From an uncultured virus (IMG/VR IMGVR_UViG_3300027828_000003) (taxonomy: Duplodnaviria; Heunggongvirae; Uroviricota; Caudoviricetes): a stretch of DNA of 20,000 nucleotides. Positions 1 through 18,421 of this stretch are shown here, in pieces. The DNA lies in the IMG/VR virus record IMGVR_UViG_3300027828_000003. One strand, written 5' to 3'. The translations under genes were made by a program, and so were the position numbers. Every line of letters starts with the position of its first letter. Positions within the stretch are counted from its first letter, which is position 1. Below the pieces are notes generated by a model. It was not told the DNA's origin. It saw only the letters and a list, made by a program, of their open reading frames with translations, and did no database searches.

Positions 1-950
1 ATCGCCTCGTCGCCACCCTGTTCGGGCGCGGGCAAGGCTTTCTCGCTCGTGCGAGCCATCAAGGCTTCAATCCGTTCCCGGTATTCGTCGGCCTTCGCGG
101 AAAGCTTGGCCTTCTCAAGCGGGTCCGTCGTTTCGTCCGCCCATGCCTGATTGCGCGTTTGATGCGCCTTCAGAGCGGCGAGCGTCCGATTGACGGCCGG
201 ACTGATAAGACGTGCCGTCTCCGGCGCGATGCTTTGCTTGACCCTGACGGGCATCAGAATAAGCATCGCCCCCGGATATTCCGGAAACGTCGCCATGGCC
301 GCTTCCGTCGCGGAATGGGCGTACAGGCTCACGTTTCCGTCCTTCCCGCCCAAGAGCTTCGCGATATCGCCAACGGATTTGAGATATTTTCCGTTGAACG
401 ACACCGGTTCGAAGTCCTTAGCGCGGGCGTCGTCTTTGTCCGTCACCCCGCCGGTCAGACTTTCCATGATCATTTGGTAATCAGGAAACGTGCCGGACAC
501 GATCGGGCACTTGATGCGCGCGTCTTGCTTGGCGTCCGTGAGGTACGCGCTCGACGCGTTCACCGCGTTCTCGATCTTGATCAGCTCATCCTCGCCGAGC
601 TTCTGCAAAAGCTTCAGCTTGGGAGCGAGATTTTCGCTGTGCAGGATCGCGCCTTGTTCCAGCCATGCCGGGGCTTGCCCGACAAGCGGCTGAGTGGCGA
701 TGAACAAACGGTGACCATCCGTGGCCACGGCCCGGATCCTGTCCTCGACGACATGGAAAAAGATTCCGTTGAGATAGTAGCGGGTCTCTTCCGTGCTGGC
801 GCACGCCAAAGCGGCATGCATCAGGGTCGCCGGAAACAGGATCGATTCGGAGGCTCCGACCTCGACGGCCTGGGCGTTGTCGTCCTGGCGCGCGTTGTTC
901 TCGGCTTCCGTGGTCTGTTCCGTGGTGGTGACGTGGTTTTGGTCAGTCAT
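1..950 (-). CDS. DNA polymerase III beta-clamp (DnaN)-like protein, truncated architecture, with C-terminal helical extension (3' end runs off the window)
   Basis: ATG at 950 preceded by GGAG; frame open to position 1. Hand translation gives clamp motifs ASTEETRYYLNG, AVATDGHRL, GTFPDY, VSFNGKYL and LILMPVR, then more than 75 extra residues. Confidence 0.85.
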   Translation of the reverse strand, partial: MTDQNHVTTTEQTTEAENNARQDDNAQAVEVGASESILFPATLMHAALACASTEETRYYLNGIFFHVVEDRIRAVATDGHRLFIATQPLVGQAPAWLEQGAILHSENLAPKLKLLQKLGEDELIKIENAVNASSAYLTDAKQDARIKCPIVSGTFPDYQMIMESLTGGVTDKDDARAKDFEPVSFNGKYLKSVGDIAKLLGGKDGNVSLYAHSATEAAMATFPEYPGAMLILMPVRVKQSIAPETARLISPAVNRTLAALKAHQTRNQAWADETTDPLEKAKLSAKADEYRERIEALMARTSEKALPAPEQGGDEA

Positions 951-1340
951 TGGATTTTCTCCGTGTTGCAGTGTGACCGGCGGCGGATGCGCTGCCGGGG
1001 CCTAGTTTGAAAATGGCCTAAGCGGGCGCACCCTCGCGGGCGCGCCCAATGGAGAATCTGCAATGTGGAGAATGTCGTTATTCACAATGTCCGAGAACGG
1101 GACGAAAGCGGGCGGCGGCTGCCTGTCGCGTTGTGGAATGCCGGATAAACGGACTGGATACCGCCGCACCGGTCACTGCCTTCCCAGCCGATCCCGTAGG
1201 ACCGTGCCACGTTCCGAAAGCCTTGACGCGAAGGCCTAGCCCAAAGGGCCAGAGCCGATCCCGATTCACGATGTCCAATAACCAGACCCGAGGGGCCTGA
1301 CGGCGCTCTGACCGCCGCGCACGGCGCAGGCATTGCCCTA
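951..1340 (-). promoter_or_regulatory. Long structured 5' leader of the clamp-like gene
   Basis: Minus-strand hairpins including GGGCGCGCCC-GCGA-GGGTGCGCCC (1024-1047, GNRA loop) and 977-998; direct repeats GGACATYGTGAAT (1080-1092, 1264-1276) and plus-strand AGCCGATCCCG (1186-1196, 1253-1263). Confidence 0.45.
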
Positions 1341-1344
1341 ACCG

Positions 1345-1363
1345 ATATGAGATAGTCTCATAT
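1345..1363. promoter_or_regulatory. Palindromic operator-like site ATATGAGA-TAG-TCTCATAT (core ATGAG-N5-CTCAT)
   Basis: Perfect 8-bp inverted repeat; the same core occurs at 2901-2915 and 8304-8318. Confidence 0.65.
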
Positions 1364-1540
1364 TATGGGGTATAGTTCAAGGCTTTTTATCGCAAACTCA
1401 TATGGTTATGGTTGGGCATTAATGAGCCGGTTTAAGGGCCGTTGGTGGCTGTAGGGGTATGTGAGGGGTAGACGTAGGGGTATGAGGTTGCGCGAATGTG
1501 GGGGCGTTAGAGAGGCTGTAGACCTGGCTTTGTATGAGGC

Positions 1541-1809
1541 AGGGAGAGAGAGCCGTAGGGGCTGGGCTGGGTGTAGGGACAGGGAGAGAGAGCCGTAGGG
1601 GCTGGGCCGGGTGTAGGGACAGGGAGAGAAGGCCGTAGGGGCTGGGCTGGGTGTAGGGACAGGGAGAGAGAGCCGTAGGGGCTGGGCTGGGTGTAGGGAC
1701 AGGGAGAGAGAGCCGTAGGGGCTGGGCCGGGTGTAGGGACAGGGAGAGAGAGCCGTAGGGGCTGGGCCGGGTGTAGGGACAGGGAGAGAAGGCCGTAGGG
1801 GCTGGGCTG
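1541..1809 (+). repeat. 40-bp G-rich tandem repeat, about 6.7 copies
   Basis: Unit AGGGAGAGAGAGCCGTAGGGGCTGGGCTGGGTGTAGGGAC starts at 1541, 1581, 1621, 1661, 1701, 1741 and 1781 (partial), with only two variable sites and no spacers. Confidence 0.97.
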
Positions 1810-1843
1810 ATGGTGCCCGATGTGTTGGGGCTTGAGGTAGGGC

Positions 1844-1876
1844 AAAAGAAAAGGGCCCGCGCAGCGGCGGGCCCTT
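1844..1876 (-). terminator. Rho-independent terminator of the 78-aa gene
   Basis: Stem AAGGGCCCGC/GCGGGCCCTT (1851-1876), followed on the minus strand by TTCTTTT. Confidence 0.85.
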
Positions 1877-1899
1877 GGTGGTGTAGGTGACGGCGCTTG

Positions 1900-2136
1900 T
1901 TAGGCGGCGGCTTCCAGGGTGCCCCCGGTCTCGAGCGTTTCAAGTTTCGCATAGAGCGGATTCAATTGCTTGGTCACAAGGCCCTTATCGTAGCCGGTCA
2001 AGGCGTCGCGGGTGCGTTCCAGCCGGGTGATGCGGGCCTTGGTGGCGGCGATCTGGTGGCCGATGGTGCCCTTGGTGGCGGCCGCCTTGGCGCCGGCGTT
2101 CAAACGGGTCTGGCTGTCGATGTTCACGTTACGCAT
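1900..2136 (-). CDS. Small basic helical protein (78 aa), standalone transcription unit
   Basis: AGGAG RBS, own promoter and terminator; contains two AxKAxxT(K/R) motifs and ends in EAAA. Confidence 0.8.
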   Translation of the reverse strand: MRNVNIDSQTRLNAGAKAAATKGTIGHQIAATKARITRLERTRDALTGYDKGLVTKQLNPLYAKLETLETGGTLEAAA

Positions 2137-2192
2137 GGTTCAATCTCCTGTTGCAGTGTCCGGCGGGGACCGTCCCCGTCGTCGATGGTTAG

Positions 2193-2221
2193 AATATAGG
2201 GTGTGATATGAATTTTGTCAA
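2193..2221 (-). promoter_or_regulatory. Near-consensus sigma70 promoter TTGACA-N17-TATATT
   Basis: -35 at 2221-2216 and -10 at 2198-2193, pointing into the 78-aa gene. Confidence 0.75.
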
Positions 2222-2900: not shown

Positions 2901-2915
2901 ATGAGAGGGACTCAT
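2901..2915. promoter_or_regulatory. Operator-like palindrome ATGAG-AGGGA-CTCAT overlapping the terS RBS and start
   Basis: Exact ATGAG-N5-CTCAT match. Confidence 0.6.
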
Positions 2916-3579
2916 GTCTCTCTCGCTGGACCGGAGGAACGGCACGCGCGTGGGAAAGGGTCAGCCGGTGGCTGAGAACTCAGACAGCCCTATGGAAGGC
3001 AAACTGGTATGCGGAGCGAAGACCAGGAGCGGCGGCACCTGTCAGAAACCGCCTATCAAGGGGAAAAAGCGGTGTCGTCTTCATGGCGGCGCCAGCAACA
3101 ACCCTGCGCCGAAGGGCAACACCCGCGCTCTCAAGCACGGCCTCTACAGCTCGGTCATATCCGACGAGGAAAAGCGGCTTTGGGAACACATCGAGCTCGG
3201 CACGATCGACGACGAGCTTCGACTGGCTCGGGTCAAGCTACGACGCCTGTTGGCCTTCGAGAACGCCCAGAACACGCCCCAGGACGCCGGTGGGGCGACG
3301 AATTCGTCTCGAAAAGGCATGACGCTCGAGGAAGTCCGCGTCTTGACCGACGGCCGCAGCCGGCAAACCGAGATGGTTCAACGCCGAGTCGATTACACAC
3401 CAGAGATCCGCGGCTTACTCAAAACGATCGGCGATCTCGAGAAAACGCGCGCGGCAATCGGAACCGGAGCGGACGACCCGGAAACGATGGCCAGAAAGGT
3501 CCAGGACGCATTGCACGCGATTCATCTGATCCAGGAAGGAATACCGGTTGGACCCGATGAGGCATATGAGGCCGCTTGA
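2914..3579 (+). CDS. terS: Terminase small subunit (HGGxSTG-type N-terminal domain)
   Basis: CGAKTRSG..C..RCRLHGGAS and GNTRALKHGLYS motifs; lies directly before terL with an overlapping TGATG. Confidence 0.88.
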   Translation: MSLSLDRRNGTRVGKGQPVAENSDSPMEGKLVCGAKTRSGGTCQKPPIKGKKRCRLHGGASNNPAPKGNTRALKHGLYSSVISDEEKRLWEHIELGTIDDELRLARVKLRRLLAFENAQNTPQDAGGATNSSRKGMTLEEVRVLTDGRSRQTEMVQRRVDYTPEIRGLLKTIGDLEKTRAAIGTGADDPETMARKVQDALHAIHLIQEGIPVGPDEAYEAA

Positions 3580-4937
3580 TGCAGCCGCCAGACGCTTTTC
3601 TGACCGCGCAGCAGAAGGCAGCTATGGCGACGCTTGGGCCGCGGTGGTACCCACTGCGGCAGCATCCTGTTCAACTGCGGCTTTGGAACGACGACTACCG
3701 ATTCAAGGTCGTCCCGGCCGGCCGGCGTTCGGGCAAGACCGAGAACGCCAAACGCCGCATTGTGAACTGCGCCATTCGATCAAATCGGTACGGAAACGCC
3801 AGGTTCTTCGCCGCGGCGCCGACTTGGGCCCAGGCCAAACGCATCTTCTGGGCCGATCTGAAGGCGATGGTGCCGAAATGGCTGCTTGCCGGCGCGCCGT
3901 CGGAAGGCGAGCTGACGATCAGGCTCAACACCGGCTCGGAAATCTGCGTTTTCGGCATGGACAAGCCGGAACGCATCGAGGGTTCACCTTGGGATGGCGG
4001 CGTCCTCGACGAATACGCCAACATGAAGGAACAAGCCTGGGGGGCGCACGTCCGCCCTGCCCTCTCGGATCGCCGCGGCTGGTGTTGGCTGACCGGCGTC
4101 CCGGAAGGCCGCAACCACTACTACGACATCTACAAACGGGCCCAGGCCGACACGACCGGCGAATGGGGACACTACACCTGGAAATCGTCCGAAGTTCTGC
4201 CGCTTTCAGAAATCGAAGCGGCGCGAAAGGACCTCGACGAACTGACCTTCCTGCAGGAATACGAAGCGAGTTTCGTCAACTTCCTGGGTCAGGCCTACTA
4301 TTCGTTCGACGACAAAATTCATTGCGCGCCTCTGACGTACCGGCCGGACGATCTGATCGTCTTCTGCTTCGACTTCAACGTGGCGCCGGGCATAGCTGCG
4401 ATCTGCCAGGAGCAGCACTTGCCGTCCGGTCAGTACGGCACAGGCGTGATCGGCGAAGTTCACATCCCACAACATTCGAACACGGTTCGGGTCTGCAACC
4501 GATTAATTCAGGATTGGGGGCACCATCGCGGGAAAATCCTCTGCTACGGCGACGCATCCGGCGGCGCGGGTGGCAGTGCGAAGGTAGCCGGCTCGGACTG
4601 GGACCTGGTCCGAAAGACGCTCAAAGAGAAGTTCGGCGATCGGCTCGATTTTCGGGTGCCGTCCGCCAACCCGTCGGAACGCGCCCGCATCAACGCGGTC
4701 AACACGCGACTGAAGTCGATAAGCGGCGAGGTTCGTCTGATGGTCGATCCACGATTTGCACCGAATGTCGTCATCGACTTCGAGGGTGTGCGCCTCGTCA
4801 AGGGTGGTTCGGGCGAGATCGACAAGAAAGCCACCCCGAAGCTGACGCATGTCACCGACGCGATCGGCTACTACGTCTTCTACGAATTCCCGGTCATCAA
4901 ACAAACGGCGACGCAAGCCACCATCATCGGAGTCTGA
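3579..4937 (+). CDS. terL: Terminase large subunit
   Basis: Walker A AGRRSGKT, Walker B GVLDE, coupling motif LTGVPEG, nuclease motifs CFDFN and HVTDAIGY. ATG at 3579 is coupled to the terS stop. Confidence 0.96.
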   Translation: MQPPDAFLTAQQKAAMATLGPRWYPLRQHPVQLRLWNDDYRFKVVPAGRRSGKTENAKRRIVNCAIRSNRYGNARFFAAAPTWAQAKRIFWADLKAMVPKWLLAGAPSEGELTIRLNTGSEICVFGMDKPERIEGSPWDGGVLDEYANMKEQAWGAHVRPALSDRRGWCWLTGVPEGRNHYYDIYKRAQADTTGEWGHYTWKSSEVLPLSEIEAARKDLDELTFLQEYEASFVNFLGQAYYSFDDKIHCAPLTYRPDDLIVFCFDFNVAPGIAAICQEQHLPSGQYGTGVIGEVHIPQHSNTVRVCNRLIQDWGHHRGKILCYGDASGGAGGSAKVAGSDWDLVRKTLKEKFGDRLDFRVPSANPSERARINAVNTRLKSISGEVRLMVDPRFAPNVVIDFEGVRLVKGGSGEIDKKATPKLTHVTDAIGYYVFYEFPVIKQTATQATIIGV

Positions 4938-17962: not shown

Positions 17963-18001
17963 TCCAATCCCATTAACTCACTGCAACAAGGAGAATTGTG
18001 A

Positions 18002-18421
18002 ATGTCTGAGAACGAAAAAAAGAGCGGGGCCGGCTTCGATCTGGCCTCGCTCGACACCATCGCCGCATCCAATGAAGGCGAATGGATGAACGTCATGCAT
18101 CCGAAGACGGATGAACCGATCGGGGCCAGGATCAAACTGGCCGGGCCGGACAGCGATATCGTCAAGAAGGCCCAGAACAAGATCACCAACCGCCGTCTCA
18201 AAGGGCGGGGCCGGAACAAGCTCGACGCGGAGTCGATCAACGAAGAGCAGGTCGAAATGCTTGCTTCCTGCACGCTCGGCTGGGAGGGGATCGTCGTCAA
18301 CGGGGAAGAGGTGAAGTTCTCCAAGGATAACGCGGTCAACCTCTACCTCAAGTATCCCTGGATCATGGAACAGGTGAACATTTTCATCGGTGATCGGGCA
18401 AATTTTATCAAGAGCTCCTGA
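18002..18421 (+). CDS. Tail assembly chaperone (gpG-like)
   Basis: AAGGAG RBS; between tube and tape measure; GPDS, GWEGI and DRANF motifs. Confidence 0.88.
   Translation: MSENEKKSGAGFDLASLDTIAASNEGEWMNVMHPKTDEPIGARIKLAGPDSDIVKKAQNKITNRRLKGRGRNKLDAESINEEQVEMLASCTLGWEGIVVNGEEVKFSKDNAVNLYLKYPWIMEQVNIFIGDRANFIKSS

Follow-up and report, generated by a model that had tools for sequence, protein, structure and literature searches.

Predicted separate expression, a generic start-associated leader and borderline hairpin similarity in a small helical protein gene and a truncated clamp-like gene of a tailed phage

The neighbouring genes for a 78-aa helical protein (p78) and a truncated beta-clamp-like protein of an uncultured tailed phage are best explained, with moderate confidence, as two separately expressed genes that carry a generic leader, the helical hairpin at the end of the clamp core being intrinsic to the clamp family. 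The original prediction, based on a hand alignment of the two proteins and a leader sequence upstream of both genes, with the G-rich array between them as a possible target, saw in the pair a co-regulated two-part module. These observations are partly confirmed, and the interpretation is supported in part. The similarity of the two proteins is not above chance as a single pair and borderline as a whole; the data do not support the module. The window, i.e., the whole stretch of 20,000 nucleotides that was analysed, contains the start of a leftward gene set that is divergent from terS and terL. In this set the first gene would encode a three-helix protein under its own near-consensus sigma-70-type promoter and with its own terminator; the second, after a C-tract non-coding spacer, would encode the truncated clamp-like protein with a conserved hairpin and a disordered tail. 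The analysis established gene structures and folds, synteny, the copy numbers of motifs and similarity statistics; all functions proposed below are inferred.

The p78 gene (1900-2136, minus strand; protein P0121), for which 16 family members were recovered, is predicted from its flanking signals to be a separate transcription unit. A sigma-70-type promoter, TTGACA-17-TATATT, is recognised by a sequence match of 11/12 (2193-2221, minus strand), and by eye TTGACA/TTTACA-17-TAnnTT is also found upstream of the p78 homologues in loci L005 and L004. Directly 3′ of the gene lies an intrinsic-terminator-like hairpin of 10 pairs, 8 of them G-C, with a T run (1851-1876, minus strand; tail TTCTTTTG), and a comparable hairpin follows the homologue in L004. 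These predicted signals, together with the generic nature of the leader, argue against a co-regulated module. The three-helix protein contains a helical hairpin at residues 24-70 (1927-2067, minus strand), with helices at 24-45 and 49-70 and a block pLDDT of about 94 in the AF2 model. P78 matches no Pfam family (best E 0.029, below the cut-off) and no PHROG, 12 of its relatives have no Pfam match either, and the best E in a PDB profile search was 2.1. Sequence searches of the ESM Atlas and the PDB with p78 and with the clamp tail returned generic hairpins only, which were discarded, and Pfam, PHROG, PDB and structure searches revealed neither a DNA-binding family nor a DNA-binding fold in p78.

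Among 1.84 billion representatives searched with HMMER, the p78 profile gave 30 matches at E≤0.001, none of which is a clamp-family protein. TPR proteins (E 1e-7 to 1e-4) were rejected as p78 relatives, as they match in multiple stretches at the ALxSYDKAL repeat junction; the profile is drawn to generic helical hairpins, and the TPR matches arise via an ALxxYDKxL hairpin motif. The basic unit of the p78 family, KAAATKGxxGHxxAAxKAxxTR, forms tandem repeats in P0135 and P0150. A pattern search gave 180 matches in genome contigs, with no p78 relative among them, and in metagenome contigs it recovered only the window's own contig, a distant relative (L033) and a repeat protein (L034). The DNA context is known for 5 of the 16 family members (P0121, P0154, the L004 homologue, P0122 and P0123), in the case of P0122 and P0123 from contig records only. 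P78 would be an abundant, first-expressed early protein with a target of its own.

The full-length clamp-like protein (P0001) has 411 aa, of which residues 1-316 are encoded in the window by an ORF that is open at the window edge (5′ part of the gene; 3-950, minus strand). Pfam family PF02767 matches residues 50-157 (E 3.6e-11) and was the only one found when P0001 and seven relatives were scanned, PF00712 and PF02768 giving no match in P0001. Matches were also obtained to phrog_3007 (E 3.9e-24; residues 40-238, profile positions 6-187 of 190) and phrog_947 (E 3.1e-15). The label of phrog_3007, 'RusA-like Holliday junction resolvase', is at odds with the clamp fold found. In the AF2 model the core consists of strands and helices between residues 35 and 232, amounting to about 1.5 clamp domains, i.e., one full domain (strands within 35-151) and a half domain (helix 187-204 and strands within 208-232), and Foldseek aligns the model with DnaN structures from Rickettsia, Caulobacter and E. 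coli at E ~1e-11. By AF2 and Foldseek, the clamp-domain fold (beta-alpha-beta-beta-beta, duplicated) is present, as in DnaN. The phage protein nevertheless departs from the three-domain DnaN chain (PF00712, PF02767 and PF02768), as it is reduced to some 1.5 domains out of three and has, in addition, the hairpin, an ALPAP motif, a disordered tail and a C-terminal helix.

A closer likeness is found in the short phage 'DNA polymerase III beta-like' proteins (~180-260 aa; phrog_3007 and phrog_947), with which the truncated clamp core is shared; the profile match spans the whole phrog model, and in BFVD the target-normalised TM-score to 202-aa phage proteins is 0.75-0.78. Examples in BFVD are A0A6J5S145 of an uncultured Caudovirales, G9FGZ4 of Rhodococcus phage REQ2 and Q6UYL9 of Burkholderia phage BcepNazgul. 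Whereas these short clamps stop at the end of the clamp core, the present family continues for about 170 residues, including the conserved hairpin. The parts of the literature that were available yielded no account of truncated phage clamps or phage DnaN-like proteins. Clamp-like proteins of short length are common among phages, and a family in which a highly conserved hairpin always follows the truncated core offers a concrete element to mutate.

This C-terminal hairpin, delimited by AF2 and the family alignment, spans residues 243-301 (TLAALKAHQTR ... KADEYRERIEAL; 48-224, minus strand), with helices at 243-273 and 277-301 and a block pLDDT of 89-98. It is the most conserved segment of a 27-sequence family alignment, in which A259, L260, A262, R266 and R293 are invariant. 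Beyond it follow a disordered tail that is acidic and then basic, and the C-terminal helix, which ends in Ala-Ala. Because the hairpin is also present in 13 further viral clamp loci in which no p78 relative was detected, it is independent of p78. It may serve the clamp family as a built-in element for self-association or docking that works without p78.

Between the two genes, the G-rich array that had been described is indeed present as a 40-bp tandem array of 6.8 copies (1540-1809; TRF, period 40, 95% matches), which is rich in G-tracts on the plus strand and C-rich on the gene strand. Its GC skew is +0.59 to +0.62, and GTAGGGG occurs nine times in it against an expectation of 1.05. A 177-aa ORF over the array (1419-1952, minus strand) was rejected as a gene because the equivalent spacer of L005 (596-1028) contains no ORF of at least 50 aa on the gene strand. 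The GC skew is -0.5 to -0.74 over about 500 nt after the p78 gene in L032, the window's own contig, and in L005; it lies in the same range over the 172 nt available after the homologue in L004, and a stretch of 81-84% GC follows the distant homologue in L033. Relatives do not share the spacer sequence itself, the 40-bp array being found here and no array in L005.

The order of 78-aa gene, C-tract spacer and clamp gene is kept in the closest relatives, adjacency is kept in the relative G002, and the records of P0002 and P0122 each give a single contig, of 5959 bp. A clamp relative is found in 14 viral loci, of which L005 alone also contains a p78 relative at E≤1e-3; in the 13 more distant loci, two of which have less than 1.3 kb of upstream sequence, no small-ORF match was better than E 0.37. 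The distant p78-like gene of L033 has no clamp gene in the 2.8 kb downstream. No similar DNA was found among 50,697 phage records, and the nearest genome record (G001) is without this region.

The shared leader is real and beyond chance, but it is not private to the p78/clamp pair. It reads CCGCCGG-ACACTGCAACA-GGAGA, 7 nt and ATG at the 78-aa gene (2137-2166, minus strand) and CCGCCGG-TC-ACACTGCAACA-C-GGAGA, 7 nt and ATG at the clamp gene (951-983, minus strand). The ACACTGCAACA copies, at 964-974 and 2149-2159 on the minus strand and flanked by CCGCCGG and GGAGA, are exact, with 0.21 matches per window expected by chance at up to one mismatch, which bears out the original observation of a common leader. 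A further copy of the motif at 17978-17988 (plus strand) is part of a third leader in the window, TCACTGCAACA-AGGAGA-N7-ATG (17978-18001, plus strand), before the tail assembly chaperone gene (18002-18421; phrog_313, E 3.3e-24). On L032, (C/A)ACTGCAACA occurs seven times in 12.2 kb, each time on the gene strand, and six of these copies are followed by a GGAG-type site and ATG. ACTGCAACA is invariant in 8/8 aligned copies, including the one at 17979 (plus strand) of the window; seven of the eight lie 16-19 nt before an ATG, counted from the start of the motif, and four have GGTCGCGGTA...TACCG upstream. With a ribosome-binding site, ACTGCAACA precedes at least seven genes of this phage, one of which, the tail chaperone gene, is late. 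In G002 (114.8 kb), CCATCTGCAA occurs 11 times, 10 times on one strand, against no occurrence of the reversed control pattern; ten copies lie 11-16 nt before an ATG, among them the copies at its p78 gene and its clamp gene. In L018, several genes are preceded by a related hairpin-ACTGCACA-SD element. This distribution, over early and late genes, deprives the leader of the role of a two-gene co-regulation mark. In a scan of viral contigs for ACTGCAACA-N0-2-GGAGA, a single copy was found in each of 80 of at least 113 stretches, which is the chance level for 14 bases.

The leader would be a phage-wide start-associated element, in which ACTGCAACA abuts the Shine–Dalgarno sequence and a short inverted repeat often lies upstream, marking many genes, early and late, rather than a private two-gene regulon. 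Since it is located inside the 5′-UTR of the 78-aa gene, the element would act on the mRNA, either by taking part in the initiation of translation or by binding a factor. Readings of the motif as a sigma-54, ECF or T7-like promoter, considered by eye, were dropped because in three phages a sigma-70-type promoter is located upstream of the p78 motif; in the case of sigma-54, the GG/GC spacing does not fit either. Rfam gave nothing near its gathering scores on L032, and the small hairpins obtained by RNA folding of seven leaders (z -1.2 to +0.2) are not thermodynamically unusual.

Comparable elements are the start-associated sequences (SAS) and extended SAS of Cluster K mycobacteriophages. In the available parts of their description, these are short asymmetric repeats in one orientation near start codons, preceding a subset of genes by a few nt and overlapping or abutting the Shine–Dalgarno sequence, with an upstream inverted repeat at variable spacing in about half of the copies (Pope et al., 2011; PMC3203893). 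The element described here similarly has many copies in one orientation at a fixed few nt before starts, ACTGCAACA abutting the Shine–Dalgarno sequence GGAG, an upstream repeat in part of the copies and a group-specific consensus. It differs in sequence, which is GGGATAGGAGCCC in SAS, in its probable host group, and in having one copy before a late structural gene, whereas SAS are, in the same parts of the article, confined to the non-structural genome half (PMC3203893). The GC content, together with DnaN matches to alphaproteobacteria, points to a probably alphaproteobacterial host for the present phage group. The ACTGCAACA element would thereby extend start-associated sequences from mycobacteriophages to a different phage group, making them a more general and comparable phenomenon. 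A literature query for repeated conserved intergenic motifs with a Shine–Dalgarno sequence in bacteriophage genomes returned nothing related.

With regard to the proteins, the best local alignment (Smith–Waterman, BLOSUM62) places p78 residues 24-68 on clamp residues 252-297 with 11 identities, one gap and a score of 33; the hand alignment, with the same 11 identities and register, was therefore the optimal one. Among 2000 shuffles, 34% attain this score when aligned with the whole clamp and 8.5% when only the tail is used, and BLASTP of the pair gives only a 3-residue match (E 36). By these sequence statistics, the similarity of the single pair is therefore not above chance.

Between the two families, profile statistics suggest a similarity that is weakly but reproducibly above composition. 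The profile-profile comparison yielded a signal in the same register, with hhalign P values of 0.14 for three p78 sequences, 0.04 for 11 and 0.012 for 16 against 40 clamp tails, and a further value of 0.032; the hhalign probabilities, however, were only 0.4-3.5% over all runs and 1.3-3.5% in those with P 0.012-0.04. The observed score was reached by 1 of 200 column-permuted profiles. Reciprocally, 21 of 27 real tails exceeded the 95th percentile of shuffled tails with the p78 HMM and 9 of 11 p78 relatives that of shuffles with the tail HMM, counts in which the sequences within each family are related and hence not independent; reversed controls had a mean of about 0 bits. Local alignments shared one register in 20, 12 and 16 of 27 comparisons. 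In a blind search of 3463 six-frame ORFs (367,875 residues) with the p78 HMM, clamp tails were the best non-self matches, on the hairpin (L011, E 0.011; L012, E 0.06). BLASTP of 16 p78 relatives against 40 clamps gave 33 matches at E≤1, 23 of them carried by the AHxTR hairpin, compared to six for reversed queries. The best single pair is P0122 with P0026 (E 2e-4, 47 ungapped residues), and P0128 matches the clamp profile with P 0.0028 over 76 columns. AF2 predicts an antiparallel helical hairpin for each of the two regions, the turns of which coincide in the alignment, and both carry the signature A-[AG]-[LI]-[KR]-A-x-x-T-R, followed by the turn and then K. Homology of the two hairpins, as a very old paralogy, is possible at somewhat less than even chances; alternatively, two helix-turn-helix hairpins may have converged.

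That the similarity of these Ala/Lys/Arg-rich hairpins is pure chance, and that the genes are functionally unconnected beyond their neighbourhood, seems rather doubtful. The pairwise shuffle and BLASTP values agree with it, as do the generic hairpins from structure searches, the choice of the pair by eye after many proteins had been scanned, and the TPR hairpins matched by the p78 profile, albeit in a huge library. Against it stand the clearly lower reversed and shuffled controls, the top rank of clamp tails in the blind search and the synteny in close relatives. Generic coiled-coil composition as the only source of the similarity is weakly contradicted at the family level and favoured by the TPR matches. 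It is unlikely that p78 is a free-standing paralogue of the clamp hairpin, forming a mixed helical bundle that determines which oligomeric state the truncated clamp adopts or which partner it chooses. The register-consistent family similarity, the matching hairpin geometry in the models, the adjacency in the closest relatives and a C-terminal Ala-Ala common to both families would fit such a paralogue. However, no test reached a conventional homology threshold (family-versus-family hhalign probability ≤3.5%), the hairpin persists in 13 clamp loci where no p78 could be detected, the p78-like gene of L033 stands without a nearby clamp, and the leader is not pair-specific. Of the proposed free and tethered hairpin copies, the matching predicted hairpins and a weak family signal stand, and homology is possible. 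Were p78 a free hairpin copy, it would clearly exemplify a phage that has detached a domain and uses it to regulate the parent protein.

An action of p78 on the skewed spacer, by binding its G-tract/C-tract DNA or transcript, e.g., at a replication- or packaging-related site by the terminase genes, with the clamp tail unrelated, is improbable. Gene and spacer are kept together more widely than gene and clamp, as seen from the skew in L032, L005 and L004 and the GC-rich stretch in L033, where no clamp gene is near, and the basic tandem repeats of P0135 and P0150 are such as a nucleic-acid-binding peptide might have. Yet p78 has no detected DNA-binding family or fold, the spacer differs in sequence between relatives, and adjacency alone is weak evidence. 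Two separately expressed genes with a generic leader are preferred to these readings. The following were counted against this preference and in favour of a real link between p78 and the clamp: the blind search, the BLASTP counts of 33 and six, the P0122/P0026 pair, P0128, the common register, the coinciding turns, the adjacency in G002, the single-contig records of P0002 and P0122, and the Ala-Ala enrichment.

A reading that joins these elements is quite improbable as a whole. In it, p78 would be an ancient free copy of the hairpin, made first and in excess from its consensus promoter, which pairs with the tethered hairpin and switches the assembly state or partner of the clamp; both proteins would be cleared via a shared Ala-Ala degron, and both mRNAs would carry the phage-wide start-associated RNA element, letting one factor tune many genes. 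SsrA-like C-terminal degradation signals are recognised by ClpXP. About half of the p78 and clamp family members are without an Ala-Ala ending and in this differ from such signals; the others resemble them, since hydrophobic/Ala-Ala-Ala or x-Ala-Ala termini (IAA, LAA, VAA, KAA, AAA) are frequent in both families. Counted on the last two residues, Ala-Ala is present in 8 of 16 p78 sequences and 12 of 27 clamp family members, compared to 3 of 89 DnaN-type controls.

The plus strand of the window carries the phage packaging and structural genes, including terS (2914-3579; phrog_1889, E 2.5e-16) and terL (3576-4937; phrog_2, E 9.7e-39), while the left end holds two minus-strand genes, one encoding a clamp-like protein (3..950) and one a 78-aa protein, p78 (P0121; 1900..2136). 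The clamp-like ORF is open at the window edge. The rest of the gene and about 4 kb past its end come from locus L032, a 12.2-kb part of a contig of 80,225 bp retrieved in a metagenome scan; in the stretches that were compared, it matches the window without a difference. The complete protein has 411 aa (P0001). No DNA similar to the window was found among the phage records searched. The p78 gene has its own sigma-70-type promoter (TTGACA-17-TATATT, 11/12, at 2221..2193 on the minus strand) and, directly after the gene, its own terminator (1876..1851, minus strand), so that it would form a transcription unit of its own.

The leader common to the two genes is real. An exact ACACTGCAACA occurs in front of both genes (minus strand, 964-974 and 2149-2159), flanked by CCGCCGG and GGAGA and 7 nt before each ATG, and the two leaders with their ACTGCAACA copies span 958-983 (clamp gene) and 2144-2166 (p78 gene) on that strand. 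The element is not private to this pair, however. A third copy in the window (17978-18001, plus strand, with the motif at 17978-17988) precedes the tail assembly chaperone gene (phrog_313, E 3.3e-24), and (C/A)ACTGCAACA occurs seven times in the 12.2 kb of L032 (5979, 7164, 9081, 9637, 10149, 11165 and 11560, plus strand), always on the gene strand, against about 0.7 copies expected by chance in our own estimate from a uniform base model. In six of these seven, a GGAG-type site and then an ATG come next. Among eight aligned copies ACTGCAACA is invariant; it lies directly before GGAG and ATG in seven and has GGTCGCGGTA...TACCG upstream in four. The relative G002, a genome of 114.8 kb rated complete, whose clamp is 45% identical to that of the window in a tblastn match, has its own version, CCATCTGCAA, in 11 copies, 10 of them on one strand, with none for the reversed control pattern. 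Ten copies stand 11-16 nt before an ATG, including those of its own p78 and clamp genes. Similarly, locus L018 has a hairpin, ACTGCACA and a Shine–Dalgarno sequence before several genes. In three phages, the motif in front of the p78 gene lies about 45 nt downstream of a sigma-70-type promoter (two of the promoters were read by eye), which would place it in the 5′-UTR. Hairpins predicted upstream of the leader have ordinary folding z-scores (-1.2 to +0.2), and Rfam gives nothing near its gathering scores on L032. The leader is a phage-wide start-associated element. The original prediction had taken it as the mark of a co-regulated pair, which is not supported for an element that precedes many genes, that of a tail assembly chaperone included, and whose G002 version has 11 copies.

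The nearest described counterparts of the leader, to which it is analogous, are the SAS/ESAS elements of Cluster K mycobacteriophages. These are 13-bp asymmetric repeats, located 3-7 bp before start codons and containing the Shine–Dalgarno core; about half of the SAS copies have upstream inverted repeats, and SAS function is given as unknown (PMC3203893). In another clamp-bearing phage (L016, 4041-9118, plus strand), the hairpin CGGCGATTAAGCCG, with variants, is present before at least five genes on one strand; this may be another repeat of broadly similar type, distinct from the leader and associated with gene starts or with terminators.

The label clamp-like is correct, as shown by Pfam, PHROGs, AlphaFold2 and Foldseek. 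PF02767, the central domain of DnaN, is the sole Pfam match (residues 50-157, E 3.6e-11). The AlphaFold2 model (27 input sequences, mean pLDDT 79) contains about 1.5 clamp domains, i.e., one full domain and half of another, with strands and helices over residues 35-232. Among the PHROGs, phrog_3007 matches residues 40-238 (E 3.9e-24), and there is a second match to phrog_947, annotated as 'DNA polymerase processivity factor' (E 3.1e-15). Foldseek matches the model to DnaN structures (E about 1e-11) and to phage 'beta-like' proteins of 180-260 aa, with TM-scores of 0.75-0.78 on target length. The protein thus belongs to this truncated phage class and has the same clamp core, but carries about 170 extra residues. 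These comprise two long helices (243-273 and 277-301, pLDDT 89-98), a disordered stretch that is first acidic and then basic, and a terminal helix (397-410). The helical hairpin is the best conserved block of the family alignment (TLAALRAHxTR ... KAxEYxxRI ... ALPAP), in which A259, L260, A262, R266 and R293 are invariant. A subgroup (P0010, P0011, P0015, P0020-P0022 and P0028) has an additional conserved block past the hairpin (alignment columns 480-560), RFxADVNAxLS...GLTLSQLADGVPIDDWFDAGL...RCxDWRR, without a Pfam match in the five members scanned (P0010, P0015, P0020-P0022). The phrog_3007 label, 'RusA-like Holliday junction resolvase', looks wrong for this family, as this PHROG covers the clamp core over its whole length (E 3.9e-24) and the fold is DnaN-like.

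For p78, no Pfam or PHROG family was found. Its AlphaFold2 model (mean pLDDT 78) has three helices (6-22, 24-45 and 49-70), with a pLDDT of about 94 in the second and third, which makes 'free helical hairpin' a fair description. Sequence searches recovered 16 members of a small family, 70-145 aa in length. Two further proteins (P0135, 131 aa; P0150, 98 aa) are built of the basic unit KAAATKGxxGHxxAAxKAxxTR, repeated in tandem two or three times; this unit corresponds to the N-terminal half of the p78 core and may be an independent binding module.

The resemblance of p78 to the clamp tail had been picked by eye. The hand alignment is exactly the Smith-Waterman optimum (11 identities, score 33), and it places the turn of p78 (residues 46-48) on that of the clamp (274-276), as in both AlphaFold2 models. 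As a single pair, however, the likeness is no more than chance: of 2000 shuffles, 34% reach this score when the whole clamp is the target and 8.5% when only the tail is, and BLASTP gives no match worth counting (E 36). At the family level the similarity is borderline. Against 27 clamp relatives, the top score of P0121 (68, with P0026 over 73 columns) exceeded all 300 shuffles (null maximum 42.6 on average, sd 4.5; reversed control 40), although this pair has no significance after composition adjustment; for the relatives P0122 and P0123, 1.7% and 7.3% of shuffles reached the observed maximum. The T of ITRLER was aligned to the T of AHxTR in 20/27, 12/27 and 16/27 of the best local alignments. 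Profile-profile comparison by hhalign returned the register of the original prediction every time, with probabilities of only 0.4-3.5% and P-values of 0.14 with three p78 sequences, 0.04 with 11, and, with 16, 0.012 against 40 tails and 0.032 against full-length clamps; the observed score of 16.9 was reached by one of 200 column-permuted profiles, and reversing the profile lowered it to 11.9. For the p78 relative P0128 against the clamp profile, P was 0.0028 (probability 11%).

In reciprocal HMM searches, both families mostly scored above the controls. Relative to 2700 shuffled tails, 21 of 27 real tails scored above the 95th percentile with the p78 HMM and 12 above the 99th; with the tail HMM, 9 of 11 p78 cores exceeded the 95th percentile of shuffles and two the 99th, reversed sequences averaging about 0 bits. 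In a blind search of 3463 six-frame ORFs (window and 18 loci), the top non-self matches of the p78 HMM were clamp tails, on the hairpin in L011 (E 0.011) and L012 (E 0.06). When 16 p78 relatives were compared with 40 clamps by BLASTP, 33 matches at E<=1 resulted, 23 of them on the hairpin, compared to six for reversed queries; the lowest E was 0.01 per query. Taken pair by pair, P0122 with P0026 came out best (E 2e-4). The register, percentile and BLASTP counts are not independent, since the members within each family are related. Moreover, when the p78 profile was run by HMMER over all 1.84 billion representatives, no clamp-family protein came up at E<=0.001, but TPR proteins did, through ALxSYDKAL. 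The profile is evidently drawn to generic hairpins and its E-values are to be treated cautiously. In our reading, the shared local signature, A-[AG]-[LI]-[KR]-A-x-x-T-R followed by a turn and then K, is real, while homology of p78 and the clamp hairpin is possible, though somewhat less likely than not.

The p78 gene is followed by the clamp gene on one strand in the window and in G002 (L005: 261-593 and 1501-2952, stop-to-stop ORFs). Further pairings are probable or possible for P0002 and P0122, each on one contig of 5959 bp, and for P0003 and P0123, from different records of one WGS set. By contrast, no p78 relative was seen in the remaining 13 viral loci that have a clamp relative (identity 30-37%), two of them spanning less than 1.3 kb upstream, and in L033 the 2.8 kb that lie downstream of a distant p78-like gene (112 aa) contain no clamp. 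In L006, L011 and L014 the clamp and terminase genes likewise point away from each other, so the position of the clamp gene is conserved; the first small gene is not. A radical-SAM-like gene (phrog_13321) lies after the clamp gene in L005, L011 and L032, and a DNA methyltransferase follows it in L005, L006 and L011; in the phage of the window (L032, 9661-12234), DUF6908 and DUF3085 proteins are encoded between the clamp and radical-SAM-like genes. The interpretation in the original prediction is partly supported. Its observations are partly confirmed, the leader solidly and the protein alignment with no more than borderline significance at family level. The two hairpins, an adjacency kept in close relatives and a possible distant kinship speak for the interpretation; against it, the co-regulated two-part module draws on a leader that many genes have in common, and the tail hairpin is widely present without the small protein.

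The predicted G-rich array between the two genes is present (1540-1809), with a 40-bp unit in 6.8 copies and a plus-strand GC skew of about +0.6. After the p78 homologues in L005 and L004 the DNA is just as skewed but has no tandem array. A non-coding stretch of extreme strand asymmetry thus comes after the p78 gene in every case (window 1400-1900, L005 600-1100, L004 8192-8364, L033 1791-2190). GC skew of the gene strand ranges from -0.5 to -0.74, with 46-57 C tracts per 700 nt (46 of three or more in the window), so the opposite strand would be rich in G tracts and quadruplex-prone; the stretch in L033 is 81-84% GC. Contigs L002 and L004 stop inside or just past the spacer and P0123 is encoded by gene 1 of its record, all of which look like assembly breaks. 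The location of the spacer beside terS suggests a genome-end, packaging or origin function. A 177-aa ORF across the array (1419-1952, minus strand), a proline/serine/leucine repeat, is probably no gene, as no ORF reaches 50 aa in the equivalent L005 spacer.

Lastly, eight of the 16 p78 relatives and 12 of the 27 clamp relatives (P0001-P0028) end in Ala-Ala, compared to three of 89 DnaN-type controls and about 3% expected from the alanine content of both families. Because such endings resemble ssrA-like ClpXP signals, they suggest by analogy that both proteins may be short-lived.
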